Source of the DNA: a virus
Taxonomy: Duplodnaviria > Heunggongvirae > Uroviricota > Caudoviricetes
Reading direction: 5' to 3' (one strand)
Length of the DNA stretch: 64,000 nt
IMG/VR virus record: IMGVR_UViG_3300028048_001412
Location: 109,858-173,857 of that record
Shown here: piece by piece, positions 26,463 to 56,990 of the stretch
Position numbering within the stretch: the stretch's first letter is position 1
Layout: each line of letters starts with the position of its first letter
Notes under the pieces: generated by a model
The model's input: the letters and a program-made list of their open reading frames with translations, nothing else
What the model was told of the DNA's origin: nothing
Database searches by the model: none
Position numbers and translations under genes: made by a program

Positions 26463-26878
26463 GAATTAAATTCGAAATTGCCTACGCTCATAGATTAATG
26501 ACTTCCTATTCCGCCAGTTGCAGGGGACTCCACGGACATAACGGAGTGTGTGAAATATTAATAGGAAATGATAAATTAAATGAAGATATGATGGTGGTAG
26601 ATTTCAAAAAAATTAAAGAAATTGTGAAAGAAACTTTAGAAGAAAAATATGATCATTCAACTATTCTTTATAAAGATGATCCATTAGCAGAAGCAGTAAA
26701 ACCTTTCTGTAATCCAGCTAAATTTCATTTATTTGAAAAGAATCCAACAGCTGAATATATGGCTGAAAGATTTACAAATGAATTACAAGAAATATTAGAT
26801 AAAGAGTTACCGGGAACTAAAGTATTATCATTTAGTTTTGAAGAAACATCAAATAATAAAGCAATATTTGAAAGTTAA
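26450..26878 (+). CDS. queD: 6-carboxy-5,6,7,8-tetrahydropterin synthase
   Basis: FEIAYAHRL and CRGLHGHN motifs. Confidence 0.8.
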   Translation: MYSLRIKFEIAYAHRLMTSYSASCRGLHGHNGVCEILIGNDKLNEDMMVVDFKKIKEIVKETLEEKYDHSTILYKDDPLAEAVKPFCNPAKFHLFEKNPTAEYMAERFTNELQEILDKELPGTKVLSFSFEETSNNKAIFES

Positions 26879-31267: not shown

Positions 31268-32740
31268 GTGATTGAGATGATTAAATTAATTCTTATTGGT
31301 TCTCTAGTAGTCATATTTCTACTAGTTTTAACAAGTGGATATGTAAAGAGTCCACCTGATATTGCATTTATTATTTCTGGTTTAGGCAAAAAACCTAAAG
31401 TTCTTATTGGTCAAGCCGGAATTAGAATTCCTTTCTTTGAAAGATTGGATAAATTATTAGTAAAACAAATATCAGTAGATATTAAAACTAATGGAGCTAT
31501 TCCAACTAAAGATTTTATAGGTGTAGATATAGATGCTATTGCAAAAGTTAGAATAATGACTGATCCTGAAGGAATTCAAAAAGCAATGAAAAACTTTTTG
31601 AATATGTCAGAAGAAAGAATTATTCAATCTCTTACAGATTCTTTGCAAGGAAATATGCGTGAAATTATAGGAACAGTTTCTTTAAAAGAATTATGTACTG
31701 ATAGAAAACAATTTGGTGATCAAATACAAGAGAAAGCACAAGCAGATATGAATGCACTTGGAATTGAAATAATTTCTTGTAATATTCAAAAGATAGAAGA
31801 TGAAAAAGGTCTTATAAATGCTTTAGGTCAAGATAATATGTCTCAAATTCAAAAATCAGCAAGTATTGCTAAAGCTGAGGCTGAAAGAGATGTTAAAATT
31901 GCTCAAGCGGAAGCTGATAAGGCCGCTAATGAAGCAGAAGTAAATGCAAAAACAGAAATTGCTAAAAGAAATAATGATTTAGCAATTAAAGAATCTGAAT
32001 TAAAAGCCATTTCAGATAATGAAAAAGCAAAGGCTGATGCTGCATATGAAATTCAAAAAGAAGAGCAAAGAAGAAGTATAGAAACTCAAAAAGTAAATGC
32101 TGATATTGCTAAAGCATCTAAAGAAGCTGAATTAAAAGAACAAGAGATTAAAGTAAAACAAAATACTTTAGCCGCTGAAATTAAAGCAACTGCTGATGCT
32201 GAAAAATATAGAAAAGAAAAAGAAGCAGAAGCTATTAAATTAGTAGCAATGCAAGAAGCAGAAGCAATTAGAGTTAAAGGTGAAGCAGAAGCAGAGGCAA
32301 TTAGAGCAAAAGGTAAAGCAGAAGCTGACGCAATGTTAGAAAGAGCAAAAGCATATCAACAATATAATAAATATGCAGCAATTGAAAAAATAGTTGATAT
32401 ATTACCACAAGTTGCAAAAGAAGTATCTTCTCCAATCACTCAAATTAAAGATATTAAAATCTTTGATGGTGGAAGTGATGGAAATGGTGTTACTCAAGTA
32501 GGCGGATATGTTCCGGGAGTAATGGCTAAGACATTCGAAACAGTAAAAGCAGCTACCGGGATAGATTTAGGCGAAGTTGTAAAAGGTGAAACATATGATG
32601 CTAAAGTAAATAAAAATATAAAGATAGATTCTCAATTAAATTCAAAAACAGCAGAAAGAATTTATGATAAGAAAGCTAAAGCTGAAAAAGAAATGATTGA
32701 GAAAGAAATTAAAAATCAATCAGAAGGAGATGAAGAATAA
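31268..32740 (+). CDS. Flotillin-like SPFH/band-7 membrane protein
   Basis: N-terminal TM. SPFH region. Long Ala/Glu/Lys-rich coiled coil AEAERDVKIAQAEADKAANEAE, typical of FloT/YuaG. Confidence 0.6.
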   Translation: MIEMIKLILIGSLVVIFLLVLTSGYVKSPPDIAFIISGLGKKPKVLIGQAGIRIPFFERLDKLLVKQISVDIKTNGAIPTKDFIGVDIDAIAKVRIMTDPEGIQKAMKNFLNMSEERIIQSLTDSLQGNMREIIGTVSLKELCTDRKQFGDQIQEKAQADMNALGIEIISCNIQKIEDEKGLINALGQDNMSQIQKSASIAKAEAERDVKIAQAEADKAANEAEVNAKTEIAKRNNDLAIKESELKAISDNEKAKADAAYEIQKEEQRRSIETQKVNADIAKASKEAELKEQEIKVKQNTLAAEIKATADAEKYRKEKEAEAIKLVAMQEAEAIRVKGEAEAEAIRAKGKAEADAMLERAKAYQQYNKYAAIEKIVDILPQVAKEVSSPITQIKDIKIFDGGSDGNGVTQVGGYVPGVMAKTFETVKAATGIDLGEVVKGETYDAKVNKNIKIDSQLNSKTAERIYDKKAKAEKEMIEKEIKNQSEGDEE

Positions 32741-33749: not shown

Positions 33750-34196
33750 ATGAGGACTATATGGTTAGACATGGATGGCACAATAATAGACCTCTATGCC
33801 GATCCAAATTGGTTAAAAAGAATAGAAGATGAAGATGTTTCTTTATATGAAGAAGCAAAACCTTTAATTAACATAAAAGATTTTAAAAAATGTTGTAAAA
33901 AATTACAAGATAAAGGTTATAAGATAGGTATTATAAGTTATTTACCTTGGGAAGCATCTAAAAAATATAAGAAAGCAGTTAAGAAAGCAAAAGAAAATTA
34001 TTTGAAAAATTATTTTTCAGATATTACTTTTGATGAAGTTCATATAGAAGATTATACGGTTCCTAAACATTCTTTAGCAAGTAAAGGTGATTGTATTTTT
34101 GACGATGATATTAAAAATAGAAAAGATTGGGATAAAGGAAGAGCATTTACTGAAAAGAATATAATAGAAAAACTTAAAAAATTATATTTGAAGTAG
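33750..34196 (+). CDS. HAD-like hydrolase (5'(3')-deoxyribonucleotidase-like)
   Basis: N-terminal WLDMDGTIIDL (DxDGT motif I). Confidence 0.45.
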   Translation: MRTIWLDMDGTIIDLYADPNWLKRIEDEDVSLYEEAKPLINIKDFKKCCKKLQDKGYKIGIISYLPWEASKKYKKAVKKAKENYLKNYFSDITFDEVHIEDYTVPKHSLASKGDCIFDDDIKNRKDWDKGRAFTEKNIIEKLKKLYLK

Positions 34197-34211: not shown

Positions 34212-34661
34212 ATGAATTTTGATCAATTAATTTATCTTTTAATTAGTGGATATTTAGGATGTTTCATAACCGGAATATTATTTTTCATAATATTAAATTT
34301 TGAATTATATATTCTCAATGGTTTATTTAAGAAAGTGAATAATTTAAATTCTTTAGCTAAAAAGAATTGGGATGAAATAGGACAAGTAATAACTCTTATT
34401 CAGAAAGATCCTAAACACATTAATTCATATTCAGAAGAAGAATTTAAAAAAGTATGTAAACAAATAGAAGAAATATCATTATTTAGTATTTATATTTGGA
34501 CAGTTCAAATACCATTATTAATGAATAAGATAAAGAAATGGTTAAATTCCACTCAAAATACAATAAATGTTATAAATATGTTTCTAAAATTAATAACATT
34601 TGGTAAAATAAAATTTGAAACTAGGACTAATTTTAAAGGAGGAAACACATATGGAAATTAA
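34212..34661 (+). CDS. Hypothetical membrane protein
   Basis: Two predicted TM stretches. Confidence 0.45.
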   Translation: MNFDQLIYLLISGYLGCFITGILFFIILNFELYILNGLFKKVNNLNSLAKKNWDEIGQVITLIQKDPKHINSYSEEEFKKVCKQIEEISLFSIYIWTVQIPLLMNKIKKWLNSTQNTINVINMFLKLITFGKIKFETRTNFKGGNTYGN

Positions 34662-35604
34662 GAAATTTGTAGATATTGAGAATTTAAGAGAAAAAGATAC
34701 TTTATTGAACGGATTGGTTACTAGAGGAAGAAATGATTTAAATTTCAGACCTGGCAATCAGATTTCAATAACTACTAAAGTAGATGGTTCAAACGCTTCT
34801 GTTGGATATAATGCAGAAACAGATAAATTAGAATGTTGGAGTAGAAGATTGCCATTAAAGTTTGATAATACTTTAAATGGATTTTTTGAATATGTTCAAT
34901 TATTAGATGTTTCTCCTTTCAAAAATCATCCTACATATAGAGTATTTGGTGAATGGATGCCATTTCAAAGAACAAATAAAATAACATATGATGAAAAGAT
35001 GAATCATAGATGGATAATTTATTCTATTTATGATATAAAAGAAGAAAAATGGTTAACTCAAGATATTGTTAAATCTTTCTGTGAAGAATCAGGATTAGAA
35101 TATGTAGAAGTTTTATATGAAGGTCCATTTATTTCATGGGATCATTGTAGAGAATTTATGAATAAATCTAAATACGGTGATAAACAAGAAGGAATAGTAA
35201 TTAGAAATATGGACGGTATTTATAATCCTGATGTTAAATATCCTTGGATTCTTAAAATAGTAGGAGAAGAATTTTCAGAAATAATGAAACATTCTAGAAA
35301 ACCTAAAGATCCTGAAGAAGAAAGAAGAAAACAAGGAGCTAAAGGAAAAGCCGCTGAAATATTATCTACTGTAATTACTAAAAATAGAATTGAAAAAGCA
35401 ATTACTAAATTCCAAGAAGATGGAATATTACCAAAACAATTATCTGATAAAGATATGGGAAATATAGCAAAAATACTTCCAAAAGCAATATATGAAGATA
35501 TATTGAAAGAAGAACCTGAAACTTTACAAGCATCTGGAGAATATGGCCCAAAAGTATTAGGACAAATGGTAATGGCTATAGTAAGACCTATGATATTAGG
35601 ATAA
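34651..35604 (+). CDS. ATP-dependent nucleic-acid ligase, RNA ligase 2-like size and motifs
   Basis: Motif I TTKVDGSNASVGY (KxDG). EGIVIRN (motif IV). KYPWILKIVGEEF (motif V). The likely start at 34651 follows a GGAGG RBS. The track ORF began at 34615. Confidence 0.55.
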   Translation: MEIKKFVDIENLREKDTLLNGLVTRGRNDLNFRPGNQISITTKVDGSNASVGYNAETDKLECWSRRLPLKFDNTLNGFFEYVQLLDVSPFKNHPTYRVFGEWMPFQRTNKITYDEKMNHRWIIYSIYDIKEEKWLTQDIVKSFCEESGLEYVEVLYEGPFISWDHCREFMNKSKYGDKQEGIVIRNMDGIYNPDVKYPWILKIVGEEFSEIMKHSRKPKDPEEERRKQGAKGKAAEILSTVITKNRIEKAITKFQEDGILPKQLSDKDMGNIAKILPKAIYEDILKEEPETLQASGEYGPKVLGQMVMAIVRPMILG

Positions 35605-35623
35605 TAAAATAGGAGAAATAAAA

Positions 35624-35636
35624 GTATAATATAAAT
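35624..35636 (+). promoter_or_regulatory. GTATAATATAAAT motif abutting ATG of small ORF
   Basis: Motif instance. The ATG is at 35637. Confidence 0.35.
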
Positions 35637-35795
35637 ATGGATAATAGAGAGAAAAAAATCAAACAATGTGAATTTTGTACTTCTTTTCTAAATATAGATA
35701 AAGAAAAGAAAGATAGTATATGTACAAATCCAGAAAGTCCTTGTTATAATTGCTGGGTTAGTAGAACTCAAGAAGGATGTGAATGTTTTGAATAA
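35637..35795 (+). CDS. Small Cys-rich protein (52 aa), not in ORF track
   Basis: MDNREKKIKQCEFC...CYNCW...GCECFE. Has the same motif-ATG arrangement as the polymerase gene. Confidence 0.35.
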   Translation: MDNREKKIKQCEFCTSFLNIDKEKKDSICTNPESPCYNCWVSRTQEGCECFE

Positions 35796-35822
35796 ATTGT
35801 AAATAGGAGGATATTATATTTA

Positions 35823-36041
35823 ATGATAGGTGTTAAAACATTAAATAATTTCGGAGGAATCATAGTATTAGGAATAGATGAAGAAATTGTAGAATATTAC
35901 TATGATTTTGGCGGTGAAAATATATCTCCTATTTATAAACAGAAATTAGAATATGATGAAAATGGAAAACCTTATTTTGAAACTAAAGAAGGAAATCAAT
36001 ATTTAGATGAATTTATGACTTCTAATAAAGGAGATAAATAA
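35823..36041 (+). CDS. Hypothetical small protein
   Basis: 72-aa ORF, AGGAGG RBS. Confidence 0.4.
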   Translation: MIGVKTLNNFGGIIVLGIDEEIVEYYYDFGGENISPIYKQKLEYDENGKPYFETKEGNQYLDEFMTSNKGDK

Positions 36042-36239
36042 ATGGAAAAATGGATCATTTATAGAAATAATGGACATGATATAATAGGAAATGAAGATGT
36101 AGGATATCAAATAACAAATGATATAAAAAATGCACTTATTTTTCCAAATGAATCTTCAGCAAGAGATTATAAGAAATTTTATGATGAAGAATCTATAAAA
36201 TCAGGAAATGGAAAATGGATGGTAAAACAAATACAATGA
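36042..36239 (+). CDS. Hypothetical small protein
   Basis: 65-aa ORF. Confidence 0.35.
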   Translation: MEKWIIYRNNGHDIIGNEDVGYQITNDIKNALIFPNESSARDYKKFYDEESIKSGNGKWMVKQIQ

Positions 36240-37504
36240 TTTATCAATATGACAAAAATATAATAGAGCAATATATTAAAGAAGGATGGTTAATAAGAAA
36301 ATGGCATCCTACTTTACCGTTACAAATTCTTAATTACAGCAGAGCTACTGAATATTCAGGAAAATGGGATGATATTACTAAAAACTGCAGAGGATTAGTT
36401 TTAGATGATAATTACAAGGTAGTAAGTCCTTGTATGCCTAAATTTTTTAACTTCTATCAACATCAAACAGAAGATCAGAAAATAATAGAAGAAAAAATGA
36501 AACATGGTTTTTATAATATCATGGCCAAGTACGATGGATGCTTGGGTTCAGTCTTTGAATATAACGGAGAAATTGTTTGTGCTTCTAAAGGCTCTTTTGA
36601 TTCATTTGTTACTAAAGAAATGTATAAAATGATAGATGGAAAATTATTCATAAATGATTTTGAAACCGTAAAATCTAATCTTATAGTAGAAGTTATTCAT
36701 CCAAATACTCATATCTTATGCAATTACGGAGATACAAAAGAATTTAGAGTTATAACTTCTTTTAGATGTGACAGAAAGAATAATGATTATTTCGAATGGT
36801 CTTATGAAGATACTTTAAATATAATTCATAATATGGATCCAAATCAAGAATTATTGAAACCTATAGAATCTTATAATATGACATTTGAACAATTAAGAGA
36901 ATGGCAAAAGAAACATAATGATAAATTAACTGAAGGATTTGTAGTAAGATTTTTAGATGATTCAGACTCAAAAATACAAAGAGTTAAGTTCAAATCAGAA
37001 GAATATTTATCTATCGCGGCAGTAAAATCAAATGCAGATCCAATTCATATATGTAATAATGCATTGGAATTATTTAAAGATAGAAAAAATTGGCCTAAAT
37101 ATGAAAATGGAAAATGGTTGGATTATTTATATGCTCAAGTTAAAGAAATTCCAGAAGATGAATTAAGAGATAAAGCATTTAATATATGTACTAATTTATG
37201 GGTAAAAACAGAATTTATATATGATAAATTCTTTATGATTGCTCAAAAATATAAAGATTTATCTGATAAAGAATTAGGAATGAAAGCAAAAGAAGATTCT
37301 GAATTAAAAAAGAATCTTAATTATATTTTCAATATTAGACACGATAAACCTTTTGATAGAGTTCTTATAGAAATGGCAAAACAAGAATTCATAGAATTTG
37401 AATCTTTACCAGAAGAAGAAAAAGAAAGAATTAGACAAGAAAAAGAAATAAAATTAGAAAAACATAAACAAAAATTAGATGAATGGAGGAAATCTCAATG
37501 TTAG
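36215..37504 (+). CDS. RNA ligase 1-like (T4 RnlA-like) nucleotidyltransferase
   Basis: IMAKYDGCLGSVF (KxDG; T4 Rnl1 has KEDGSLVSTY). EGFVVRF. KFKSEEY. The true start may be the ATG at 36236 (ATGA overlap with the previous stop). Confidence 0.55.
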   Translation: MDGKTNTMIYQYDKNIIEQYIKEGWLIRKWHPTLPLQILNYSRATEYSGKWDDITKNCRGLVLDDNYKVVSPCMPKFFNFYQHQTEDQKIIEEKMKHGFYNIMAKYDGCLGSVFEYNGEIVCASKGSFDSFVTKEMYKMIDGKLFINDFETVKSNLIVEVIHPNTHILCNYGDTKEFRVITSFRCDRKNNDYFEWSYEDTLNIIHNMDPNQELLKPIESYNMTFEQLREWQKKHNDKLTEGFVVRFLDDSDSKIQRVKFKSEEYLSIAAVKSNADPIHICNNALELFKDRKNWPKYENGKWLDYLYAQVKEIPEDELRDKAFNICTNLWVKTEFIYDKFFMIAQKYKDLSDKELGMKAKEDSELKKNLNYIFNIRHDKPFDRVLIEMAKQEFIEFESLPEEEKERIRQEKEIKLEKHKQKLDEWRKSQC

Positions 37505-37995
37505 AATTTTTAAATGCAATTCTTTGGGTAGTAGCTTTTTTAGGATTAGTTGCAGTAATATTAACTTTTTGGTTCATATTTGTTGAGAGTTATAACGATA
37601 AAACATTTACATTTGTATTGCCCTTTATAATTTCAATAATTATATTTTTAGGAACATCATACGGAGCATTTAGAACACAAGTAAAAATAGGAATTATAGA
37701 AGCAGAATCTCAAATTGAATCTTTTGAATTAGTAAAGAAACAAAAAGAAGAATTAGGAGATTCTTATATAATAGAACCTACTATGTTAACTAATTATGAT
37801 AAAGCACTTTCTACTCTAAATAAATATAAAAGATTAGGTTTATATAAAGATGATTATACTCCTAAATCAATAGAAGTCAAAATCATAGATGAAACTGGAC
37901 ATAATAAATATTGTGGTTGTAGTCCTTGTGAATGTATTGGAGAATGCAAATGCACTAAAGATTATCCATTTCCAGGATACGAAAGGACGAAATAA
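37483..37995 (+). CDS. Hypothetical membrane protein with Cys-rich C-terminus
   Basis: Two TM helices. CGCSPCECIGECKC. Confidence 0.45.
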   Translation: MEEISMLEFLNAILWVVAFLGLVAVILTFWFIFVESYNDKTFTFVLPFIISIIIFLGTSYGAFRTQVKIGIIEAESQIESFELVKKQKEELGDSYIIEPTMLTNYDKALSTLNKYKRLGLYKDDYTPKSIEVKIIDETGHNKYCGCSPCECIGECKCTKDYPFPGYERTK

Positions 37996-37996
37996 T

Positions 37997-38413
37997 ATGA
38001 TATTAAAAGATGTATTAGGTCTAATTTCTCCTAAAACTCCTATTTTCATCAAAGATGTAGATTCAGACGATATTTTAAATAAAAATGTATATGTTATATC
38101 ACAATTGGAAATGAGTGAATTTATAGATTGTCCTGTTTATGGAGTAGATCCTGAAAATTGTCAACCAATTGAAATAAATGAAGAAACTGTGGATAAATGC
38201 ATTATTATTACTATTGATCATGAAAAACATGATGATGAAATGGATATGACATTAGAAGAATTAGGAGAAATTCAAGATATAATAATAGAAGAACTTAAAA
38301 ATAATTCTAATTTAAAAGATGTAGATTATCCTGAATATCATCAAAGAAAACATGATAAACTTCATAGATTAGCATCTAAATTAGAAAATGTAATAGGAGA
38401 TAAATCTTTATAA
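37997..38413 (+). CDS. Hypothetical acidic protein
   Basis: The internal ATG at 37997 directly follows the previous stop. The track ORF 37889.. overlaps the upstream gene. Confidence 0.4.
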   Translation: MILKDVLGLISPKTPIFIKDVDSDDILNKNVYVISQLEMSEFIDCPVYGVDPENCQPIEINEETVDKCIIITIDHEKHDDEMDMTLEELGEIQDIIIEELKNNSNLKDVDYPEYHQRKHDKLHRLASKLENVIGDKSL

Positions 38414-38802
38414 TGCCTACTGAATTCAGATATATTACTAAAGAAGAAATGAGCAATAATATATTTAGATATAAAGATTTTCCTGTAGTATTTGGATTAA
38501 GTTCTAAATACTATATTGATAAAGTAGGATATTATGGTTTATTTTTTAAAGATAAACTTATAGCAATAGCTCATATTAAAATAACTAAAGATAATATCTG
38601 TAAATTAAAAGCAATAGAAGTTAAACAATATTATCAAAAGAAAGGTTATGGAAAAGAATTATTATCTAAATTAGAAGAAGTTGCAAGAAATAAAAGATGT
38701 AAAGAAATTAGATTAGTACCTAGAGATTACAGAGTATTTGATTTTTATAAAAAATGTAGGTATGAATATATTCACGAACATTTAATGAAGAAAATATTAT
38801 AG
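38413..38802 (+). CDS. GNAT family N-acetyltransferase
   Basis: QKKGYGKELLSKLEEVARNKRCKEIRL (GNAT motif A). Confidence 0.5.
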   Translation: MPTEFRYITKEEMSNNIFRYKDFPVVFGLSSKYYIDKVGYYGLFFKDKLIAIAHIKITKDNICKLKAIEVKQYYQKKGYGKELLSKLEEVARNKRCKEIRLVPRDYRVFDFYKKCRYEYIHEHLMKKIL

Positions 38803-38812
38803 AGGTGTCCAA

Positions 38813-39271
38813 ATGAAAAGAATAATAGGTTTAACATTGATTTTATCTTTATTATTATCTGTTCCTGTATTTGCAGAAGATTCTATTTTACCGTGGATTG
38901 CTATAGGTTCATCAGTTAGTGCATCCAGTAATGCATCTGAAGCGAATAGAAATGCAGCTAAAGCAAATGAAAAATTAAAAAATTTAGAAGGATTAATTAA
39001 CTCCAATATTAATAATAAACCTTCTCATTTTATTAAATTTACAAACGACTCCAATAATGAACAATATGTAGATATGGCCAATATTATATCAATAAATGGA
39101 AGAGAAGATCAATGGAGTAATAAATATGGATTTGTTTTAAAAGATTGTTTTGGTAATTATTACTATTCTCGATTATATAAATCCAAAGAAGAAGTAAATA
39201 AAATTCAAGAATATATTATTGATGAATATAATAAAGTGTTAAAAGAATATTATAATGACAGGAAGGAGTAA
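38813..39271 (+). CDS. Secreted hypothetical protein
   Basis: Signal peptide MKRIIGLTLILSLLLSVPVFA. Confidence 0.45.
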   Translation: MKRIIGLTLILSLLLSVPVFAEDSILPWIAIGSSVSASSNASEANRNAAKANEKLKNLEGLINSNINNKPSHFIKFTNDSNNEQYVDMANIISINGREDQWSNKYGFVLKDCFGNYYYSRLYKSKEEVNKIQEYIIDEYNKVLKEYYNDRKE

Positions 39272-39275
39272 ATCT

Positions 39276-39653
39276 ATGAAAAAATTAGAATTTTTCGTAT
39301 TAAATTACGACCCTAATGCTAAAAAAGTGGAAAACTTTGATATTTTTAGAAATATTAGAGTTAGAGAAGGTGTAGAAAATGCAGTAAAAGAATATTTGAA
39401 AGATCCAGATAATTATGAATATGATTTAGATGGAATTCATTCTAATAATATAGTTAAAGGATATGAGGCAATTAAATCTCATATTGATAATATTATTAGA
39501 TGGCAAGAATGGGGAAGAAGAGAATATGAAATATCAGTAGGAGATGCTTTTGAAGAAGATTGCTCAAAATTAGAAAAATGGGATTGCTATTCTCAAGCTC
39601 ATCCAAATATAGATTTAATTACTAAAATGTGTATTGATTATTTCAAGAGGTAA
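39276..39653 (+). CDS. Hypothetical protein
   Basis: ATG at 39276 after an AGGAAGGAG RBS. Confidence 0.4.
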   Translation: MKKLEFFVLNYDPNAKKVENFDIFRNIRVREGVENAVKEYLKDPDNYEYDLDGIHSNNIVKGYEAIKSHIDNIIRWQEWGRREYEISVGDAFEEDCSKLEKWDCYSQAHPNIDLITKMCIDYFKR

Positions 39654-39656
39654 CAT

Positions 39657-40058
39657 ATGGATTTTGAATTATCAACAAAAGATTTAAAGAATAAAGTTGC
39701 TCATTTTATTCAAATTGACCCTAATACTTGGGTTGATTTATCTAAAGTAATTGGAATAGAAATAAATCCTGTTCAAAGACAAGCAAATGTTCATTTTGAA
39801 GTTTGTTTTGCTATATCTACTACTTCAAAACAAGAAGCAGAAGAATTTAATACTAACTTTATAGGAGCAGTCCCTTTTATTAAATTTGAAACCTTAAATC
39901 AAGCAATAGAATATTTAAGAGATTTAGGAATAGAAATAAATCAAGATAATAATGAATTATTTAAAAAATATAATTGCACTTCAAGATTAAACAATATAAA
40001 ACAATCTAAAGTAGATGATAACGATGATTTAACTGCAGGAAAATTCGGAGCAGAGTAA
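39657..40058 (+). CDS. Hypothetical protein
   Basis: 133-aa ORF. Confidence 0.4.
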   Translation: MDFELSTKDLKNKVAHFIQIDPNTWVDLSKVIGIEINPVQRQANVHFEVCFAISTTSKQEAEEFNTNFIGAVPFIKFETLNQAIEYLRDLGIEINQDNNELFKKYNCTSRLNNIKQSKVDDNDDLTAGKFGAE

Positions 40059-40062
40059 TATT

Positions 40063-40869
40063 ATGAATGATATAAAACAATATTGGAAAAATAAAGATAC
40101 TAAAGCACAAGAAGCCAAAGTTCATACAGAATTAATGGAAAAATTCAATAAAAAAGAGATTGAGAATTCAATAGAAGGAACTATTGAATATGAAGAACAT
40201 AAAAATATTGAATTAAATACTTCTATTTCTAATCAAATTCCAGAATTTATATTAGATGATATTGATTCTGTTTCTGCAATATTCAAATATAAAGAAGATG
40301 ATGTTAAAATGGCAGTATTAAATTTTGCATCATTTAAATTTGCAGGCGGAGGATTTATTAAAGGTTCTATTGCACAGGAAGAATGTTTATGTCATGAATC
40401 TTTTTTATATAATGTATTATCTAAAAAAGAAGATTTTTATGCAAAAAATAGAACTATATTAAATGATAGCCTTTATAAAAATAGAGGATTATATTCTCCA
40501 GATATTCAATTTAGTAGAAAGATAGAGGATAATAATATCATATGTAATTGCAATGTTATAACAGTTGCAGCTCCTAATAAAAGAGCATATTTACAACATA
40601 ATGAGAAAAGTAAAGAATTGGAAGAGATAAATAAAAGATATTTAGTTTCTAGATGTAATTTTGTACTTACTATTGCTAAACTTCATAATATTAAAACACT
40701 AATATTAGGTGCTTTTGGATGTGGAGTATTTAATCAAGATCCAGAAGAAGTAGCTTTAGCATTTAGAACATTATTAGAACAATACGATTATGGTGTAGAA
40801 AAAGTAATATTTGCTATTCCTAATAAAAATGATCCGAATTATCAAGGATTTTTTAAATATTTTAAGTAA
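40063..40869 (+). CDS. PARG-type macrodomain protein (DUF2263/TIGR02452-like poly/mono-ADP-ribose glycohydrolase)
   Basis: LNFASFKFAGGGFIKGSIAQEE matches the PARG catalytic signature GGG-X6-8-QEE. Confidence 0.55.
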   Translation: MNDIKQYWKNKDTKAQEAKVHTELMEKFNKKEIENSIEGTIEYEEHKNIELNTSISNQIPEFILDDIDSVSAIFKYKEDDVKMAVLNFASFKFAGGGFIKGSIAQEECLCHESFLYNVLSKKEDFYAKNRTILNDSLYKNRGLYSPDIQFSRKIEDNNIICNCNVITVAAPNKRAYLQHNEKSKELEEINKRYLVSRCNFVLTIAKLHNIKTLILGAFGCGVFNQDPEEVALAFRTLLEQYDYGVEKVIFAIPNKNDPNYQGFFKYFK

Positions 40870-40949: not shown

Positions 40950-41120
40950 ATGAAAGTATATATTCTCTGGTATCAACCTCTTCATAATTATGATGATGAA
41001 CCTTGGCAAATATATGATATTTTAAGTTCGGAAGAAAAAGCAAGAATTAGACAAAGAGAAATAGAGGTTGAAAATCCAAAACTATATAAATTCAACATTG
41101 AAGAGTGGTCTGTAAAGTAA
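40950..41120 (+). CDS. Small hypothetical protein (56 aa), not in ORF track
   Basis: Strong ATAGGAGGA RBS, then ATG. MKVYILWYQPLHNYDDEPWQIYDIL... Confidence 0.4.
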   Translation: MKVYILWYQPLHNYDDEPWQIYDILSSEEKARIRQREIEVENPKLYKFNIEEWSVK

Positions 41121-41176: not shown

Positions 41177-42097
41177 ATGAAAATTTATGCACACATAGTA
41201 AAAAACATGACTTTAAATTCTATTACTTATGATGATTTCGTAGAATTATTCAAAGATAATAAACTTGGTCAAAGAACTTGGATGCATTGCAAAGATAAAA
41301 TGGCAAAACAACCTACTAAATATGGAAAAGGAAGATATGTTCAATATAAAGCATTAGGAAATAATTTTATATTTAGTTCAGGATTAACTAAAGAAGAATT
41401 ATTAAAAATAGCAAATTGTGAGACTAAACAAGTTCCTAAAAATATAGAGTCAATAACTACTCCTTATAAAACAGATGATGAAATATATAGAGAAGATTTA
41501 CATATATTTATAAAAGAAAAATATCCAGTAGATTATATACTTAAAGGCAAAGTTGGAGATTATATTATAAAATATGCAAATGTTAAGAAAAAACAAATAC
41601 TATTAGATGGAGATACTATTAAAATTACTTCTAATAATTTAAGATTATTTAAAACTAAAGGATATAAATGTTGTAAGTGCGGAGTAGAAGGAAAATGGTT
41701 TTATAAAATTAGAAGTGATGTAAATGACGGATATCATTTAGAATTATTTGGAGAAAAAGATGGTAAATTAGTAGTAATGACTAAAGATCATATTCTTCCT
41801 CTTTCAAAAGGAGGAGCGGATCATGTGGCGAATCTTCAAACAATGTGCAGTAAATGTAATCAAGAAAAAAGTAATGATGTTAATTTAAAAGATAAAGCAA
41901 ATGGAATATCAAAACAAGAATTATGTTTAGCAAAAATGCAAGCCGTTACTAAATTATGTCAAAAAGAATATAATTCAAAAATGGATAAACAAGAACTTTG
42001 CAGAAAAATATTTGAAATTATAAACGGTAGAGATGAAAAAAATCTCGATAAAAGTAAAGGTTTATTAAGAAAATTAGGTAGATTAATAGGAGTGTAA
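41177..42097 (+). CDS. HNH homing endonuclease
   Basis: DHILPLSKGGADHVANLQTMCSKCNQEKSN. Confidence 0.7.
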   Translation: MKIYAHIVKNMTLNSITYDDFVELFKDNKLGQRTWMHCKDKMAKQPTKYGKGRYVQYKALGNNFIFSSGLTKEELLKIANCETKQVPKNIESITTPYKTDDEIYREDLHIFIKEKYPVDYILKGKVGDYIIKYANVKKKQILLDGDTIKITSNNLRLFKTKGYKCCKCGVEGKWFYKIRSDVNDGYHLELFGEKDGKLVVMTKDHILPLSKGGADHVANLQTMCSKCNQEKSNDVNLKDKANGISKQELCLAKMQAVTKLCQKEYNSKMDKQELCRKIFEIINGRDEKNLDKSKGLLRKLGRLIGV

Positions 42098-42168: not shown

Positions 42169-42696
42169 ATGCAAGAAACAATCATAAAAGAAAAATGTAT
42201 TTATTTAGATATTGATGGAGTACTTAACTCTGATAAAACTTTAGCCAGAACTCCTAATAGGTATATAGGAATAAGTTCGGATAAAGTTAAATTGTTAAAA
42301 GAAATTGTTAAAGCCACTGATGCTTGTATTGTTTTATCTTCTTCTTGGAGACTGATGGAAGAATATGATGAAGATAAAAAATATTTATATAAACAATTAA
42401 GATATAAAGATTTAAAAATAGTGGATCAAACTAAAAAATTATCTATGAATAGAGGACTTGAGATATCAAAGCATTTAGAAGAACATCCAGAAATTAAATC
42501 TTTTGTAATATTAGATGATGAATTTGCATTGCAATTTAAAGAATGTGGATTATCTAAACATTATATTCAAACTGATTATACCACTGGTTTAACTAAAGAT
42601 GATGTAATGAAAGCAATTAAAATATTGAATGATGAATTTGATAATGTAAACTATAAAGATAATTCTAATGAAGAACATTTTGGAAGAGAATTATAA
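42169..42696 (+). CDS. HAD-like phosphatase (polynucleotide 3'-phosphatase-like?)
   Basis: CIYLDIDGVLN motif I. VILDDE motif. Confidence 0.4.
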   Translation: MQETIIKEKCIYLDIDGVLNSDKTLARTPNRYIGISSDKVKLLKEIVKATDACIVLSSSWRLMEEYDEDKKYLYKQLRYKDLKIVDQTKKLSMNRGLEISKHLEEHPEIKSFVILDDEFALQFKECGLSKHYIQTDYTTGLTKDDVMKAIKILNDEFDNVNYKDNSNEEHFGREL

Positions 42697-46387: not shown

Positions 46388-46472
46388 GTTCCTATGGGAG
46401 AGTGGTTGAATCCATATGATTGGAAATCATAAGATCAGAAATGGTCCACAGGTTCGAATCCTGTTAGGAACG
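46388..46472 (+). tRNA. tRNA-Ser (anticodon GGA), class II with long variable arm
   Basis: Acceptor GTTCCTA/TAGGAAC. D-stem GGA/TCC with AGTGGTTGAA loop. Anticodon stem TATGA/TCATA with loop TTGGAAA. T-arm ACAGG-TTCGAAT-CCTGT. Confidence 0.6.
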
Positions 46473-46556: not shown

Positions 46557-46628
46557 TGCGAGTATAGTATAGCGGTTATTATTTCTGGCTTCCACCCAGA
46601 GGAGAAGGGTTCAATTCCCTTTACTCGC
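46557..46628 (+). tRNA. tRNA-Gly (anticodon TCC)
   Basis: Acceptor GCGAGTA/TACTCGC. D-loop AGCGGTTA. Anticodon stem TCTGG/CCAGA with loop CTTCCAC. T-arm AAGGG-TTCAATT-CCCTT. Confidence 0.55.
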
Positions 46629-46655
46629 TTAAATAAATGAAAAGTAGGTAAACAT

Positions 46656-49753: not shown

Positions 49754-50608
49754 ATGATTAAGATAGCCATAATTACAGTAATAGTTTTATTTGTAGTATT
49801 TAGTTGTGCTTTTATAGTTCCAGAGAAGAAGGAGTTTATAATTGAATTCCTTGGGAAATATAATAGAACTTTAAAAGCAGGAATTCAATTTAAGTTACCA
49901 TTTGTAGAAAGAATCAGAACTAAAACAGATATGAGAGAACATATGCATGATTTTCCGCCTCAACAAGTTATTACTAAAGATAATGTAGGAATATCTATTG
50001 ATACAGTAGTATATTGTAGAGTATTTGATTCTTATAAAGCAACTTATATGATTTCTAATAGTTTAGAAGCTATTGAACAAATTACAGCTACTACTTTAAG
50101 AAATATTGTAGGAACAATGACTTTAGATGAATTATTAACTTCAAGAGATACTATAAATGGTCATCTTTTAAAAGAAGTAGATGAAGCAACTGATCCATGG
50201 GGAATTAAAGTTACTAGAATAGAAGTTAAAAATATTACTCCTCCTCAATCAATCAGAGAATCAATGGAAAAACAAATGAAAGCAGAAAGAGATAAAAGAG
50301 CGGCTATTCTTGAAGCAGAAGCCACTAAACAAAAAGCCATTACTGAAGCTCAAGGAAAGAAAGATGCAATGTTAATGGAAGCAGAAGCTAAAGCAAAAGC
50401 AATTGAAATGGTTGCAACTGCTGAAGCTGAGGCCGTAAAGAAAATAAATGAACAAAAACCTTCAGACGCATATATTAAATTAGAAGCAATTAAGAGTTTG
50501 AAAGATTTAGCAAAAGGCCAAGCTACTAAAATAGTAGTTCCTTCAGATATTGCTTCTTTAACAAGTGGTATTTTAGCAATTAAAGATTCTATTAAGGAAG
50601 GTAAGTAA
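49754..50608 (+). CDS. Stomatin/HflKC-like SPFH (band 7) membrane protein
   Basis: N-terminal TM, then EFIIEFLGKYNRTLKAGIQFKLPFVERI, typical of a stomatin/prohibitin core. Ala/Glu-rich C-terminal helix. Confidence 0.6.
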   Translation: MIKIAIITVIVLFVVFSCAFIVPEKKEFIIEFLGKYNRTLKAGIQFKLPFVERIRTKTDMREHMHDFPPQQVITKDNVGISIDTVVYCRVFDSYKATYMISNSLEAIEQITATTLRNIVGTMTLDELLTSRDTINGHLLKEVDEATDPWGIKVTRIEVKNITPPQSIRESMEKQMKAERDKRAAILEAEATKQKAITEAQGKKDAMLMEAEAKAKAIEMVATAEAEAVKKINEQKPSDAYIKLEAIKSLKDLAKGQATKIVVPSDIASLTSGILAIKDSIKEGK

Positions 50609-50916: not shown

Positions 50917-52599
50917 ATGATTAAAAGATTATCTATAATTTTAATAAGTATAATTTTATTATCTAATAATGTTTTTGCGGAAGCTGCTATAATTTATGCT
51001 CCTACTAAACCTGTAGAAATAAAAGAAATAATAACTACTAATAATTATGATAATTATATTCCTGAGGAAAAAGGACCTATAACATCTGAAGTTATAGGAT
51101 ATTCTCTATCTTCTGATCCAGCAATGCAAGATTATATAAATATTTATAATTTATCGGAAGATTCAAATGGATATTTATATATAAAATCATCTAATAATCA
51201 ATATGTAAAGAATGCTTGGAGAAAAGTAAATATTAGAAGTTTTGAAAGAGTTGGTGGAAATACAGAAGGATTCAATAATAATTATGTTTGGGTATATTGC
51301 GGAAGTAATGGTAGATTATTAAAAGCATCATCTGGAAAAATGAAAATATATAAAATAGATAATAAAGCTTATGCTTTTAATGAATATGGCCAAATGATAG
51401 AAGGATATTTTAATGATGAAGGAGAAATATGGGATAAAAGTAATGATTCTGCTCCTTGGGAATTATTAAATGGTTCTAACTATCTATATTATGCTGATAA
51501 AAATGGTAATTTATATTCAGGATGGCTTCAATATAATGGAATTTTTACAGATGATTATGAATGGAAAAATAATATATGGTTCTATTTTGACCCTAAAAAT
51601 TATAAATCAATAAGAGCAAAAAATGATTATTATAAATTACAACAAATAGGTTCTAAAAAATATGCATTTGATAGTAATGGCGTAATGTTAACAGGAATGG
51701 ATGCTCTTAAATATAAATCAGATTCAGACGAATCAATTAAATATTTTAATTCTGATGGTTCAGTAGTAACTAATGGATTTGTTAAACTAAATTGGGATGA
51801 TGAAGTAGTAGAAGAAAACTTTAGTGATTACGATGATTATGATGAAGATATATCTATTTTCTTAAATAAATCAGGAAAAATGTATAAAGATATGATTAAG
51901 AAAATAAATAGTTCTTATTATGGATTTGATGATAATGGAGTAGTTCTTAAAAATTGTTTAGGTATATTCAATAATAATCATTTCGTAGATACAGTTTCAA
52001 TAGAAGATACAAATGGAAGAAGTTTTATATTAAAAGGTAAATATACTAATAAACATGGAAATAATGGAACTTATACTAAAGATTTAGGTAGTTTATATTA
52101 TTTTGATAATTCTGGTAAAAGACAAACTAGTGGAACTTTAAATTTTGATGACGATGATTATAAATGGGGTGCTTCAAATACAGGAGCATATGAAGATAGT
52201 AAACAAGGATATATTTATATTCATGGATTAGCTCTTAAAGCAGATAAAGATTTAAAATATGGAATATATGTTCAAAATCCTACTAAAGATACTTATTCTA
52301 ATAATGAATTATATACTTTGAATGATGTTTATGTTATAAATACTAGTGGAAAAAAAGTTAATGGTGGTTCTTCTACTATTAAAGATTCAGATGATAATTA
52401 TTGGAGAATATCTTCAAATGGATTATTTAGAGGGGTATATTCTGTTAAAGTTAGATCTAATGAATGGTATTCTTATTCTAAAAATGGAAAAGAAGAATGG
52501 ATTCCTATTGATCAGGCAGATGGTAGAGGAAAACATTTAGATGATTATAGAGTTAGATTAAATAATGAATATGGTTTGAATATAAACATTAGAAATTAA
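50917..52599 (+). CDS. Secreted protein with multiple choline/cell-wall-binding (YG) repeats
   Basis: Signal peptide. Repeats such as GWLQYNGIFTDDYEWKNNIWFYFDPKN, YAFDSNGVMLTG, YYGFDDNGVVLKN, LYYFDNSGKRQTSG. Confidence 0.55.
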   Translation: MIKRLSIILISIILLSNNVFAEAAIIYAPTKPVEIKEIITTNNYDNYIPEEKGPITSEVIGYSLSSDPAMQDYINIYNLSEDSNGYLYIKSSNNQYVKNAWRKVNIRSFERVGGNTEGFNNNYVWVYCGSNGRLLKASSGKMKIYKIDNKAYAFNEYGQMIEGYFNDEGEIWDKSNDSAPWELLNGSNYLYYADKNGNLYSGWLQYNGIFTDDYEWKNNIWFYFDPKNYKSIRAKNDYYKLQQIGSKKYAFDSNGVMLTGMDALKYKSDSDESIKYFNSDGSVVTNGFVKLNWDDEVVEENFSDYDDYDEDISIFLNKSGKMYKDMIKKINSSYYGFDDNGVVLKNCLGIFNNNHFVDTVSIEDTNGRSFILKGKYTNKHGNNGTYTKDLGSLYYFDNSGKRQTSGTLNFDDDDYKWGASNTGAYEDSKQGYIYIHGLALKADKDLKYGIYVQNPTKDTYSNNELYTLNDVYVINTSGKKVNGGSSTIKDSDDNYWRISSNGLFRGVYSVKVRSNEWYSYSKNGKEEWIPIDQADGRGKHLDDYRVRLNNEYGLNINIRN

Positions 52600-52614: not shown

Positions 52615-53145
52615 TTGAAAAGAATTAATGAATATTTTGGAGAAATTAAAGATGTTAAAGGACCAAGTATAGTAAACGCCCCCGTAAATTGTTATAAACA
52701 AGGAAGAGATTGGACGTGCAGTGTAGCTTGTATAAGAACCGCAATAAGTGCATTTAAAAATATTTCAGAAGAAGAAATCATTAAAGAAGAACAATTAAAA
52801 ATGGGTGGACAATCTATAGAAAATATAAAAAATTGGAAATGTTTAGATGGATTAAAAATAGAAACAAAAGCTACTAGAGAAATAAATGATAGTCAAGGAT
52901 TATATGATTTATTATTAGATAACTATATAGTAATATGTGCTAGTACTTATAATTTATGGCATTATATAGTTTGTTATGGATATTTAACTACTAATGAAAG
53001 AAATAATCCTGAAAATCAATATGTATTATTCTACGATCCATATTTAGATGAGCATAAACTTATAAATGCAGATATATTTGATACTATGTGGTATGATATA
53101 GGAACAAGTAAATATAGAGATTATATTGCTATCAAACAAGATTAA
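52615..53145 (+). CDS. Putative papain-like cysteine peptidase (C39-like?)
   Basis: Cys region CYKQGRDWTCSVACIRTA and His region WHYIVCYGY. Weak call. Confidence 0.25.
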   Translation: MKRINEYFGEIKDVKGPSIVNAPVNCYKQGRDWTCSVACIRTAISAFKNISEEEIIKEEQLKMGGQSIENIKNWKCLDGLKIETKATREINDSQGLYDLLLDNYIVICASTYNLWHYIVCYGYLTTNERNNPENQYVLFYDPYLDEHKLINADIFDTMWYDIGTSKYRDYIAIKQD

Positions 53146-53185: not shown

Positions 53186-55072
53186 GTGAAAATAGAAGAA
53201 ATAATTCAAAACTTAGATAAACCATTCTCTTATATAAATAATAAATGCAAGATAAATAATCAAGCTTTATCTCAATATTTATTTTCTAAATATATTGTAG
53301 ATTTACATAGAAATAATATTCAAAATCAAAGACAATTAGATAATTATATTGAAGAACATAAAAAAGACATTTTTGAAATACTTAAATTAAATACTAAAAA
53401 TTATATTGAAGATAAAATGGACAATATAGATTATGATAAAGAAATGTCTAAATATTTAAAGTCTGATAAAAATAGAGAACTTTTATTATATTTTACAGGA
53501 ACAGCGGTAAATGAAATTATAGATTCCATATTTAATGAAGAAAATAATAAGTTATCATATTCAAAAATATCAAAATTACATCCAGAACTTTATTCTAAAT
53601 TATATGGATATTTTGAAGTATATAAAGAAAACACTACTTGTAATAGACAATTAATTGAAAAAGAATTAGTCAATCTTATTCCTAAAGATTTAGTTAAATT
53701 GTATCCTGAAGCTAGAAAATTACAAAGACATTTTAAGATAATTTGTGGTCCTACTAATTCAGGTAAAACATATGAAGCAATGCAAGAATTAGAAAAATCA
53801 TATAATGGAATATATTTAGGACCCTTAAGATTATTAGCATATGAAAAATATAAAGAATTAAATGATAAAGGAATAATTGCTTCTTTAATTACAGGAGAAG
53901 AAGAAATTATAAACGAAAATAGTAGAATTCAATGTTCTACTGTAGAAATGTGTGATTTAAATAAACAATATGATTGTTTAGTATTAGATGAAGCTCAATT
54001 ATGTGTAGATAAAGATAGAGGATGTTATTGGACTAAAGTAATATTAGGTTCTTTATGTGAAAATATTATTATTTGTTGTGCTCCAGAAGCATTAACTCTA
54101 ATTACTAATTTAATAACTAAATGTAAAGATACTTATGAAATAATTAGAAAAGATAGATTGGTTCCTTTACAATCAACAGGTTCTAATTTTAATGAATCTG
54201 AAAATGGAGATGCTTATATAGTATTTAGTAGAAAACATGTTCATCAATTAGCAAATGAATTAAAACAGGATACTAAAAAGAAAATAAGTATTTTATATGG
54301 AAATCTTCCTTATGATGTAAGACAAGAAGAAGCAAAAAAATTTAATAATGGGGAAACAGATTTATTAGTAGCAACTGATTGTATTGGAATGGGTCTCAAT
54401 TTACCTATTAAAAGGGTAGTAGTAATGGAAACTGAAAAATATGACGGGACAGAAATGAGAAATCTTAATAGAGGAGAATTAAAACAAATAATAGGTAGAG
54501 CAGGAAGATATAATAAATATAAACAAGGTTATTATACAGGTCCTCAAATTAGAAAGATTGAAAATATATTAAATAAATCAGAAAAAGATAATAATATTCC
54601 ATATATTGATATGCCTAAATCATTACTTAAAATAAATGCACCTATTAAAAATATAATTGGTGTATGGAATATGTATAATATAGGAGAAGAATTTAAAAAA
54701 TCAAATAATTCTATATTATTAGATCTTTGTAAATATGCAGAAAGATATATTACTGATAGAAAATTATTATGGAATATCATAAACTTCAAATTTGATTATA
54801 AAGAAGATTTAGAGACAAAATCATTTATTGAATGGAAAAGAATGGTTCAATGTTTATCTAAAAAAGAGACATATGAATATAAAGAAAAATATTGTTCTAC
54901 TTTATTAGAATTAGAAGAAGAATATAAAGTTTATGATTTGATTTATCAATACTATAATTTAACTGGAGATAAAGATAATAAATTAAAAACAGTAGAGATT
55001 CGTAATAGATTATCAAATCTTATTATGAAAGAGTTAGAAGATATCAGAAATGATAAGAAGTGGTTTAAATAA
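53186..55072 (+). CDS. Suv3-like SF2 RNA/DNA helicase
   Basis: ICGPTNSGKTYEAMQ (Suv3-type Walker A), VLDEAQL, LVATDCIGMGLNLP (compare Suv3 ATDAIGMGLNL). Confidence 0.6.
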   Translation: MKIEEIIQNLDKPFSYINNKCKINNQALSQYLFSKYIVDLHRNNIQNQRQLDNYIEEHKKDIFEILKLNTKNYIEDKMDNIDYDKEMSKYLKSDKNRELLLYFTGTAVNEIIDSIFNEENNKLSYSKISKLHPELYSKLYGYFEVYKENTTCNRQLIEKELVNLIPKDLVKLYPEARKLQRHFKIICGPTNSGKTYEAMQELEKSYNGIYLGPLRLLAYEKYKELNDKGIIASLITGEEEIINENSRIQCSTVEMCDLNKQYDCLVLDEAQLCVDKDRGCYWTKVILGSLCENIIICCAPEALTLITNLITKCKDTYEIIRKDRLVPLQSTGSNFNESENGDAYIVFSRKHVHQLANELKQDTKKKISILYGNLPYDVRQEEAKKFNNGETDLLVATDCIGMGLNLPIKRVVVMETEKYDGTEMRNLNRGELKQIIGRAGRYNKYKQGYYTGPQIRKIENILNKSEKDNNIPYIDMPKSLLKINAPIKNIIGVWNMYNIGEEFKKSNNSILLDLCKYAERYITDRKLLWNIINFKFDYKEDLETKSFIEWKRMVQCLSKKETYEYKEKYCSTLLELEEEYKVYDLIYQYYNLTGDKDNKLKTVEIRNRLSNLIMKELEDIRNDKKWFK

Positions 55073-56360: not shown

Positions 56361-56990
56361 ATGAAGAAATTATTAATAGTTATTATATTAATTTTATTTA
56401 ATTGTAATTTTGTCTATTCATTAAATCCAGGATGGAATAATACAGGTGTAAATATTTATTATTCTTTAACAGGATATTGGTGTAATACATTAAAAGGATG
56501 GAATTATATAGATAATAATTGGTATTATTTTGATGAAAGTGGAAGATTACAAATAGATTTATCTTGTAATAATGAATCAAATCCTAAAGATAAAGTAATT
56601 TATTGGTCTCAAATTCTTTATAATAGCAAAAAATGTAAATATGATAATACTCCATCAGGAAGATATGAAGGGTTATCATTTGACTGTAGTTCTTTTGTAG
56701 GTAGATTATATAAAATGGCAGGAATAGATTTCTTTACTAAATATTATAGTTGTGAAAAACAAGCAAATTATTTTAAAGATGAAAATAAATTAATTGACTT
56801 GAATTTGTCAGAGCCAGGAGATTTAGTATATTTTGGAGAAAATTATGCTAATGTAACTCATTGCTCTTTAATAATAGAAAATAATCCTGATATAGGAATA
56901 ATTGTTTTATCTGCTTTTGGAAAAGAAAGAGGATTATATTTAGAAATATTAGATAGAGATGATATTTTATGTATAGCGAGACCATGTTAA
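56361..56990 (+). CDS. Secreted NlpC/P60-family peptidoglycan endopeptidase with N-terminal cell-wall-binding repeat (lysin-like)
   Basis: Signal peptide. GWNYIDNNWYYFDESGRL CW-binding repeat. Catalytic Cys motif FDCSSFVGRLYKMAGIDF. His in NVTHCSLII. Confidence 0.55.
   Translation: MKKLLIVIILILFNCNFVYSLNPGWNNTGVNIYYSLTGYWCNTLKGWNYIDNNWYYFDESGRLQIDLSCNNESNPKDKVIYWSQILYNSKKCKYDNTPSGRYEGLSFDCSSFVGRLYKMAGIDFFTKYYSCEKQANYFKDENKLIDLNLSEPGDLVYFGENYANVTHCSLIIENNPDIGIIVLSAFGKERGLYLEILDRDDILCIARPC

Follow-up and report, generated by a model that had tools for sequence, protein, structure and literature searches.

Why would a large phage carry a poly(ADP-ribose) glycohydrolase (PARG), and on what would the enzyme act? 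The question is raised by a 64,000-nucleotide stretch of viral DNA (positions 109,858 to 173,857 of IMG/VR record IMGVR_UViG_3300028048_001412), here called the window, in which the open reading frame (ORF) at 40063..40869 encodes a bacterial-type PARG. An initial annotation, made from the letters of the window, had recognized a PARG-type macrodomain with a GGG-X7-QEE signature in this ORF and had proposed DNA ADP-ribosylated by DarT-like toxins as a target. The family assignment is borne out below by sequence profiles, solved-structure matches and a predicted fold. For the substrate we arrive at a different and tentative proposal, to which we give slightly less than an even chance: the PARG may act on RNA, as the de-ADP-ribosylating step of a gene block devoted to RNA repair and the protection of translation.

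Identification of a bacterial-type PARG

40063..40869, + strand: bacterial-type (DUF2263/TIGR02452) PARG macrodomain ADP-ribosyl glycohydrolase, 268 residues, ATG to TAA
40345..40383, + strand: catalytic signature GGG-X7-QEE (G95-E107), with E106 and E107 as the catalytic glutamates
40708..40731, + strand: diphosphate-binding loop GAFGCGVF (G216-F223), aligned to GAWGCGVF of the Deinococcus radiodurans PARG (DrPARG)

The signature, defined for the family as GGG-X6-8-QEE (PMC8120803), lies in the peptide FAGGGFIKGSIAQEE (residues 93-107, nucleotides 40339-40383), and when the 64 kb were translated in six frames and searched with GGG.{6,8}QEE, the PARG ORF was the sole match. It is the profile scores rather than this motif that place the match beyond chance. 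The ORF scores 86.9 bits (E = 2.3e-24; gathering cut-off 23.5) against Pfam PF10021, PARG_cat_microb, the former DUF2263, and 174.9 bits (E = 2.2e-51; cut-off 50) against NCBIfam TIGR02452, the latter alignment running from residue 30 to 257 and covering 228 of the 268 residues. In the Pfam search the eukaryotic PARG profile PF05028 stayed below its gathering threshold (18.5 versus 26.3 bits).

Significant sequence matches among solved structures were confined to bacterial PARGs. The best was DrPARG (DRB0099, PDB codes 5zda-5zdg; E ~1.6e-24, ~29% identity), with which the window protein shares both GGG-X7-QEE and GAxGCGVF, and the founding bacterial-type enzyme, Thermomonospora curvata PARG (TcPARG, PDB code 3sig; E = 2.4e-20, 29% identity), was also found with the single sequence. 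Human and other eukaryotic PARG chains gave weak matches in the single-sequence search, at E = 0.007 and weaker. A profile built from 41 relatives returned the two bacterial enzymes at E = 2e-40 and E = 8e-34, respectively. When the ORF was aligned with DrPARG, GGGFIKGSIAQEE stood opposite GGGFLGGAQAQEE, and LGAFGCGVF opposite LGAWGCGVF. In the alignment of the 41 relatives (A1), N87, F88, S90, G95, G96, G101, A104, Q105, E106 and E107 are invariant, as are G216, G219, C220, G221, V222 and F223 of the diphosphate loop. At the column of G97 in A1, methionine prevails among the 40 closest relatives (consensus NPGGMFINGSKAQEE), whereas the window protein has GGG, as does DrPARG; since the third glycine is usually methionine, the textbook GGG-X6-8-QEE pattern would overlook most of this PARG clade.

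The AlphaFold2 model predicted from this alignment (mean predicted local distance difference test score, pLDDT, 87.1; predicted template-modelling score 0.88) has N-terminal helices at residues 2-39, followed by an alpha/beta macrodomain core; the block that contains the catalytic loop, residues 101-110, is modelled with a lower pLDDT of ~70. The top Foldseek match of the model is TcPARG (PDB code 3sih; E = 1.2e-17, template-modelling (TM) score 0.75, 250 aligned columns), an enzyme with the same signature, macrodomain core and N-terminal helical extension. DrPARG structures (5zd*) reach TM scores of 0.72-0.80, and other macrodomains, of the MacroD, Af1521 and PARP14 types, only 0.37-0.48. A C-terminal ribose cap limits TcPARG to exo-cleavage and is open in DrPARG; profile alignments of the window PARG end short of DrPARG T267, the ribose-cap position. 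The macrodomain fold and the catalytic glutamates, on which the initial annotation had staked its assignment, thus both stand: the predicted fold matches TcPARG and DrPARG, and E106 and E107 are present and invariant.

Judged from its conserved QEE and diphosphate loop, the protein is a catalytically intact bacterial-type PARG, with a predicted macrodomain preceded by a helical extension. It agrees with that family in profile scores, signature, diphosphate loop and predicted fold, and is neither a canonical eukaryotic PARG nor a DarG. With the former it has the signature and macrodomain core in common, but it is much shorter and without accessory domains. With DarG and its phage-borne relatives it shares the macrodomain superfamily, whereas DarG belongs to another clade (TARG1/ALC1-like) and the bond that it deals with is N-glycosidic, to thymine. 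A standard annotation pipeline would label the ORF 'TIGR02452 family protein'.

The difference from DarG bears on the DNA target first proposed, namely that the PARG removes ADP-ribose from DNA bases modified by DarT-like toxins. Phages do carry orphan hydrolases against DarTG, and the summaries of three reports present the counter-DarT proteins known to date as DarG-like or antitoxin-like, not of the PARG type (PMC11825919, PMC11481870, PMC13309987). PARGs are able to clear ADP-ribose from 5'-phosphate DNA ends (PMC11833690); on bases, published assay panels saw robust reversal of thymidine ADP-ribosylation only with DarG/TARG1-type macrodomains, and of guanine ADP-ribosylation with NADARs (PMC12879935, PMC11833690). 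The window PARG matched no PADLOC defence or antitoxin model, DarG included (E <= 0.01), and the closest folds of its model are PARGs rather than DarG or TARG1. We consider DarT-modified DNA an improbable substrate, and this part of the initial annotation is not upheld.

Published activities and the proposed role in RNA repair

Published work on two relatives points to another nucleic acid. Among the hydrolase types compared by Lu et al. 2025 (PMC11833690), only bacterial-type PARGs, SCO0909 of S. coelicolor and DRB0099 of D. radiodurans, reversed the ADP-ribosylation of RNA 2'-OH groups catalysed by RhsP2, the bond concerned being identical to the ribose-ribose bond of poly(ADP-ribose). The same study found that bacterial PARGs efficiently clear ADP-ribose from 5'-phosphate ends of RNA and DNA to which Tpt1/KptA-type enzymes have joined it, that mutation of the catalytic glutamate kills the activity of SCO0909 and DRB0099, and that the intact enzymes shield E. 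coli from the RhsP2 toxin. SCO0909, the precedent for RhsP2 immunity, belongs to the same DUF2263 family as the window PARG but is cellular, not phage-borne. DRB0099 sits between an RNA/DNA ligase and an HD-phosphatase/polynucleotide kinase (PNK) in the DRB0100-DRB0099-DRB0098 operon (PMC11833690). That ADP-ribosylation of RNA can stop phages has been proven for CmdTAC (PMC11618068).

Around the window PARG lie the following genes.

33750..34196, + strand: small HAD-family phosphatase with a DMDGT motif (phrog_2643, E = 3.1e-08; Pfam HAD matches sub-threshold)
34651..35604, + strand: Rnl2-type RNA ligase, motif KVDG (PF09414, E = 2.9e-23; phrog_548, E = 2.4e-45)
35605-36214: three small ORFs
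36215..37504, + strand: T4 gp63/Rnl1-like RNA ligase, 429 residues, motif I KYDG at K105 (phrog_562, E = 4.5e-30)
37483-37995: hydrophobic protein, probably membrane-bound, judged from its sequence
37997-38413: ORF of unassigned function
38413..38802, + strand: GNAT acetyltransferase, 129 residues, in the gap-free array (PF00583, E = 1.1e-10; acetyltransferase PHROGs)
38813-39271: protein with a signal-peptide-like N-terminus, likewise judged from its sequence
39255-39653 and 39657-40058, + strand: two ORFs abutting the PARG, 3 nt apart and 4 nt from the PARG
40950-41120: small DUF7336 ORF (Pfam)
41177..42097, + strand: HNH endonuclease between the PARG and HAD_SAK_2 (PF14279, E = 4.1e-11; PF01844, E = 1.2e-09; phrog_6050, E = 7.4e-18), probably a mobile homing-type insertion
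42169..42696, + strand: HAD_SAK_2 phosphatase of the 'Swiss Army Knife' RNA-repair HAD family, motif DIDGV (PF18143, E = 6.9e-27, 94.9 bits, cut-off 27.5; phrog_1818, E = 1.2e-29)
46388-46472, + strand: tRNA-Ser(GGA) (ARAGORN)
46558-46629, + strand: tRNA-Gly(UCC) (ARAGORN)

The catalytic motifs are intact in both ligases and both HAD phosphatases. As measured from the PARG, the Rnl2-type ligase lies 4.5 kb upstream, the HAD_SAK_2 gene 1.3 kb downstream and the tRNA genes 5.5 kb downstream, and from the Rnl1-like ligase (36215) to the PARG stop codon (40869) eight genes follow one another with no intergenic gap longer than 10 nt. The Rnl2-type ORF opens at a TTG at 34615, its likely start being the ATG at 34651, which has a GGAGG ribosome-binding site. 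The Rnl1-like ligase found no match in Pfam, and neither ligase matched a solved structure in the PDB by sequence. The RNA ligases of jumbo phages are described as having HAD_SAK phosphatases for companions, which heal RNA ends (PMC7824862); for the HAD phosphatase at 33750 such a role is presumed only. Of the two ORFs abutting the PARG, neither gave a notable match in Pfam, PHROGs, PADLOC or the PDB, and the one directly upstream (39657-40058) is a true ORFan, with a single relative, 99% identical, among 5.8 billion proteins. The initial annotation had set a GNAT acetyltransferase next to the PARG; the gene is nearby, 1.26 kb upstream, with three small ORFs between that matched no family, and is thus not adjacent. 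What had been overlooked is the more informative context, namely the two RNA ligases, two HAD phosphatases and tRNA genes of the same co-directional block.

From these neighbours, and from the published RNA activity of bacterial PARGs, we infer an RNA substrate and cooperation with the neighbouring gene products. According to this proposal, host ADP-ribosyltransferase (ART) toxins or defence enzymes, RhsP2-like or Tpt1/KptA-like, would tag tRNA, rRNA or mRNA with ADP-ribose. The PARG would strip the tag by cutting the bond between C1'' and the ribose 2'-OH and by freeing 5'-phosphate ends, restoring usable 2'-OH groups and 5'-phosphate ends. Alongside it, the HAD phosphatases would heal ends, the Rnl1- and Rnl2-type ligases would reseal broken RNA, and the phage tRNAs could stand in for damaged ones.

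The likeness to the Deinococcus operon is partial. There the ligase adjoins the PARG, as it does in some phage relatives, whereas the ligases of the window lie 2.5-5.5 kb off and are of the Rnl1 and Rnl2 types; there an HD-PNK fusion is the end-healing partner, whereas the partners in the window are HAD phosphatases, with no kinase found beside them. No P-loop kinase is encoded between 32.7 and 44.5 kb, the sole kinase-like ORF of the window being dNK-like, at 24093, and an HD domain occurs in the window, yet in no ORF scanned within ~15 kb of the PARG. By analogy, then, the window PARG may resemble DrPARG or SCO0909 in its action while sharing the Deinococcus-type ligase linkage only loosely.

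Distribution of the family

In a family search 3,786 proteins reached E <= 1e-5, and every listed one carries PF10021. An identical protein comes from a contig of 284,018 bp; the nearest relative besides this copy is only 52% identical. Only 20 records of catalogued phages contain a homologue, and they comprise Lak megaphages, Bacillus phage G (gp114), one fecal contig and two huge uncultured phages; the homologues of Lak phages, phage G and huge uncultured phages are 31-46% identical to the window PARG. An alignment-based scan of IMG/VR recovered relatives on 196 contigs, mostly of 90-325 kb, where a single-sequence scan of viral contigs had given none, and no PHROGs family matches the PARG. 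In BFVD the same fold is found in a marine phage (Gp114), in many giant viruses, Bodo saltans virus among them, and in a Siphoviridae fragment; some of these proteins are auto-annotated 'Microbial-type PARG', and to none of the database proteins save that of its own contig is the window PARG more than 52% identical. In the literature searched we found no experimentally characterised phage PARG.

The closest cellular homologues, 44-48% identical, are those of Lachnospiraceae from the gut (Acetatifactor, Blautia), and Coriobacteriia come next. This affinity, together with the HNH endonuclease two genes downstream, past the small DUF7336 ORF, might suggest a passenger gene, recently taken from a gut Firmicute and with no selected role in infection. 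Such an origin would sit poorly with the conservation of all catalytic and binding residues. The spread over 196 IMG/VR contigs, with 20 clusters among 79 genes, implies long retention in phages, and a nearest relative that is ~52% identical means that the transfer was not recent. A passenger without function is the reading to which we give least credence.

PARG neighbourhoods in related phages

The loci of 79 IMG/VR PARG genes, which fall into 20 non-redundant clusters at 90% identity, were compared with cellular PARG loci. Neighbour families were detected by iterated profiles, single-sequence tblastn being too insensitive. The counts that follow come from a crude gene caller and from clusters that lack phylogenetic independence, and flanks of unequal size were used for viral and cellular loci.

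An arrangement like that of Deinococcus was found on phage contigs of 125-143 kb (L003, L004 and L008). Here a 276-residue PARG, P0014 (48% identical to the window PARG; L003 8001-8831), is followed after 27 nt by a 440-residue PF09414 RNA ligase; a PNK-like kinase (AAA_33/KTI12) comes next, and two genes beyond it stands an NAD-dependent DNA ligase. The same P0014 protein recurs on an unrelated phage backbone (L005 and L006), again with an Rnl2-type ligase ORF 27 nt downstream, which is shortened to 228 or 296 residues versus 440. The occurrence of the pair on two backbones suggests a mobile two-gene cassette that is decaying in one lineage.

Over the whole set, an Rnl2-type ligase lies within 10 kb of the PARG in 7/20 phage clusters, a PNK-like kinase in 4/20 and tRNA genes in 10/20. 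On the assumption of one ligase per 150 kb, the binomial probability of seven or more clusters in 20 is P = 0.012, a value that is indicative only. On three IMG/VR contigs of 260-325 kb (L070, L072 and L078), only 0.4-0.7 kb separate the PARG from an array of 22 tRNA genes, and in Bacillus phage G (L167, 58424-74966), where gp114 is the unannotated PARG homologue, a tRNA array lies 6-8 kb upstream. Cellular loci, for which the flank was 6 kb, have a ligase in 1/80 and a tRNA gene in 3/80.

A Pfam scan of 150 neighbours within 5 kb of the PARG in 19 cluster representatives matched 104 families, 25 of which were listed. Those connected with RNA end-healing or tRNA repair include Metallophos (5), HD (5), RlaP (3), CCA-adding enzyme domains (2) and AAA_33/KTI12 (2); those related to NAD include NAD-dependent DNA ligase (3), PncA-like isochorismatase (3), NAPRTase (2), NAD synthase (2) and cytidylyltransferase-like proteins of the NMNAT type (2).

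Several of these observations weigh against an RNA substrate. In the window the PARG is not adjacent to a ligase: the Rnl1-like gene ends 2.56 kb upstream and seven ORFs are counted in between. That the array is free of gaps says little for a functional unit, because tight packing on one strand holds for every gene of the window. A promoter scan found 118 promoter-like sites versus 111 expected and a terminator scan 2 versus 1.7, in AT-rich DNA; as these scans are uninformative, operon boundaries are drawn from gene spacing alone. The block was found to contain no PNK-type kinase, Tpt1/KptA or 2H phosphoesterase. Among relatives, the ligase linkage is missing in 13/20 phage clusters and 79/80 cellular loci, and with a like-for-like flank of 6 kb a ligase remains in only 3/20 phage clusters. 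Large phages tend to have their accessory genes together in any case, and in some relatives the PARG stands beside NAD+ salvage genes. Finally, the N6-adenine ADP-ribosylation of the CmdT type is an N-glycosidic linkage, whose cleavage by a PARG would be without precedent.

Proteins and soluble ADP-ribose derivatives as alternative substrates

Removal of poly- or mono-ADP-ribose from proteins would be the conventional role, either to undo marks that host ARTs or PARP-like enzymes set on phage proteins or to limit those set by the phage's own Alt/Mod-like ART or a PARP-like enzyme. Hydrolysis of poly(ADP-ribose) is the classical activity of the family, as established for TcPARG and DrPARG (PMC8120803), and two surveys put the share of jumbo phages with an ART above 40% and mention a few with PARP-like enzymes (PMC9503650, PMC7824862). 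However, when genes for ART, PARP, Tpt1/KptA, Sir2, TIR, 2H and PNK were looked for among the window proteins, none was found; about 220 kb of the source contig lies outside the window. Nor is there an ART among the 25 listed of the 104 neighbour families of related phage loci, and the context is centred on RNA and nucleotides. Proteins are thus a possible substrate, if a rather unlikely one.

The NAD-related neighbours bring in a further class of substrate, the soluble derivatives of ADP-ribose. The PARG could degrade immune signals or by-products derived from ADP-ribose, such as gcADPR from TIR/Thoeris, O-acetyl-ADP-ribose or ADP-ribose-1''-phosphate, or could free ADP-ribose for the recycling of NAD+. 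A survey of viral NAD+-ADP-ribose systems holds, in the text available, that phage domains targeting ADP-ribose more likely counter soluble derivatives (PMC9503650). In related phages NAD+ salvage genes do lie within 5 kb of the PARG, and in phage G an Appr-1-p-type macrodomain protein, gp122, is encoded 3.4 kb downstream of gp114. The window itself, in contrast, has no NAD+ salvage genes, its NAD_synthase match being the QueC protein. In the best-ranked of the papers searched, no action of a PARG-type enzyme on gcADPR is described, and the known anti-Thoeris proteins are sponges. We regard soluble derivatives as an unlikely substrate overall.

One member of this class deserves separate mention. 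The ring of gcADPR is closed by a ribose-ribose O-glycosidic bond, the same kind of bond that PARG cuts in poly(ADP-ribose). A PARG might accordingly serve as an enzymatic anti-Thoeris factor that linearises 1''-2' and 1''-3' gcADPR to inert ADP-ribose. The only pointers in this direction are the bond chemistry and the NAD+ salvage genes that occasionally accompany phage PARGs, and the anomeric configuration of gcADPR may be unsuited to the enzyme; we think this role very improbable. If it were real, the PARG would be the first inhibitor of TIR immunity that destroys the signal instead of sequestering it.

The carrier phage and other genes of the window

The window (GC content 25.6%) contains 79 ORFs of at least 90 residues, all on the + strand save a few overlapping shadow ORFs, and four tRNA genes (ARAGORN). 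It encodes a phage-type DNA polymerase (phrog_1252, E = 8e-166) together with a primase, a UvsX-like recombinase, SbcC/SbcD and DnaB, GyrB- and GyrA-like topoisomerase subunits and several HNH/homing endonucleases. No catalogued phage is close: the topoisomerase subunit shares no more than 34% identity with its Bacillus phage counterparts, and a megablast of the 38-44 kb region against catalogued phages gave no match. These replication genes agree with the earlier view that the PARG is encoded by a phage, and the carrier is a low-GC jumbo phage. The host is probably a gut Firmicute. Cell-wall enzymes with choline-binding repeats are encoded in the window and point to a Gram-positive host; the repeats imply one with choline-decorated teichoic acids, for example a Clostridia- or Streptococcus-like Firmicute.

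50917-52599: 560-residue protein with choline-binding repeats
56361-56990: NlpC/P60 peptidase with choline-binding repeats

A set of genes for 7-deazaguanine (queuosine-precursor) synthesis suggests that the phage hypermodifies its own DNA.

20444-21193: radical-SAM QueE-like protein
21198-22085: GTP cyclohydrolase I
24553-25314: QueC
25338-26462: homing-endonuclease-like ORF between QueC and QueD
26450-26878: QueD/PTPS

Further features of the window stand apart from the PARG. Three SPFH/Band 7 (flotillin-like) proteins, unusual in a phage, are encoded at 31268-32740, at 49754-50608 and by a third ORF; that at 31268 also has a Flotillin domain. The ORF at 53186-55072 is a Suv3-like DExQ-box RNA helicase of the mitochondrial-degradosome type (PF22527, E = 7.7e-52), a further RNA-directed function near the repair block, and is flanked by a Peptidase_C39-like ORF (52615-53145). 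At 2731-3804 a GmrSD_N (DUF262-type) domain is fused to an HNH nuclease, a typical type IV restriction architecture, here borne by a phage. Three consecutive ORFs of 177 residues each (starting at 58297, 58940 and 59606; 58297-60139) were considered as tandem paralogues, an idea that was rejected, as BLASTP found no similarity between them.

Implications for phage PARGs

In the literature searched, functional studies of phage PARGs are lacking, and so is any account of the recurring neighbourhood of PARG, ligase, PNK and tRNA genes in large phages that is described here. Bacterial-type PARGs had long been without a clear physiological substrate until the reversal of toxic RNA ADP-ribosylation was shown in 2025. 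If the same holds for the phage enzymes, removal of ADP-ribose would form a third arm of phage RNA repair, beside end-healing and ligation, and RNA-targeting ARTs would be predicted to be a common anti-phage weapon in gut Firmicutes. If proteins or soluble signals should prove to be the substrate instead, this would still be the first functional assignment for a family that spans Lak megaphages, phage G and at least 196 IMG/VR contigs.

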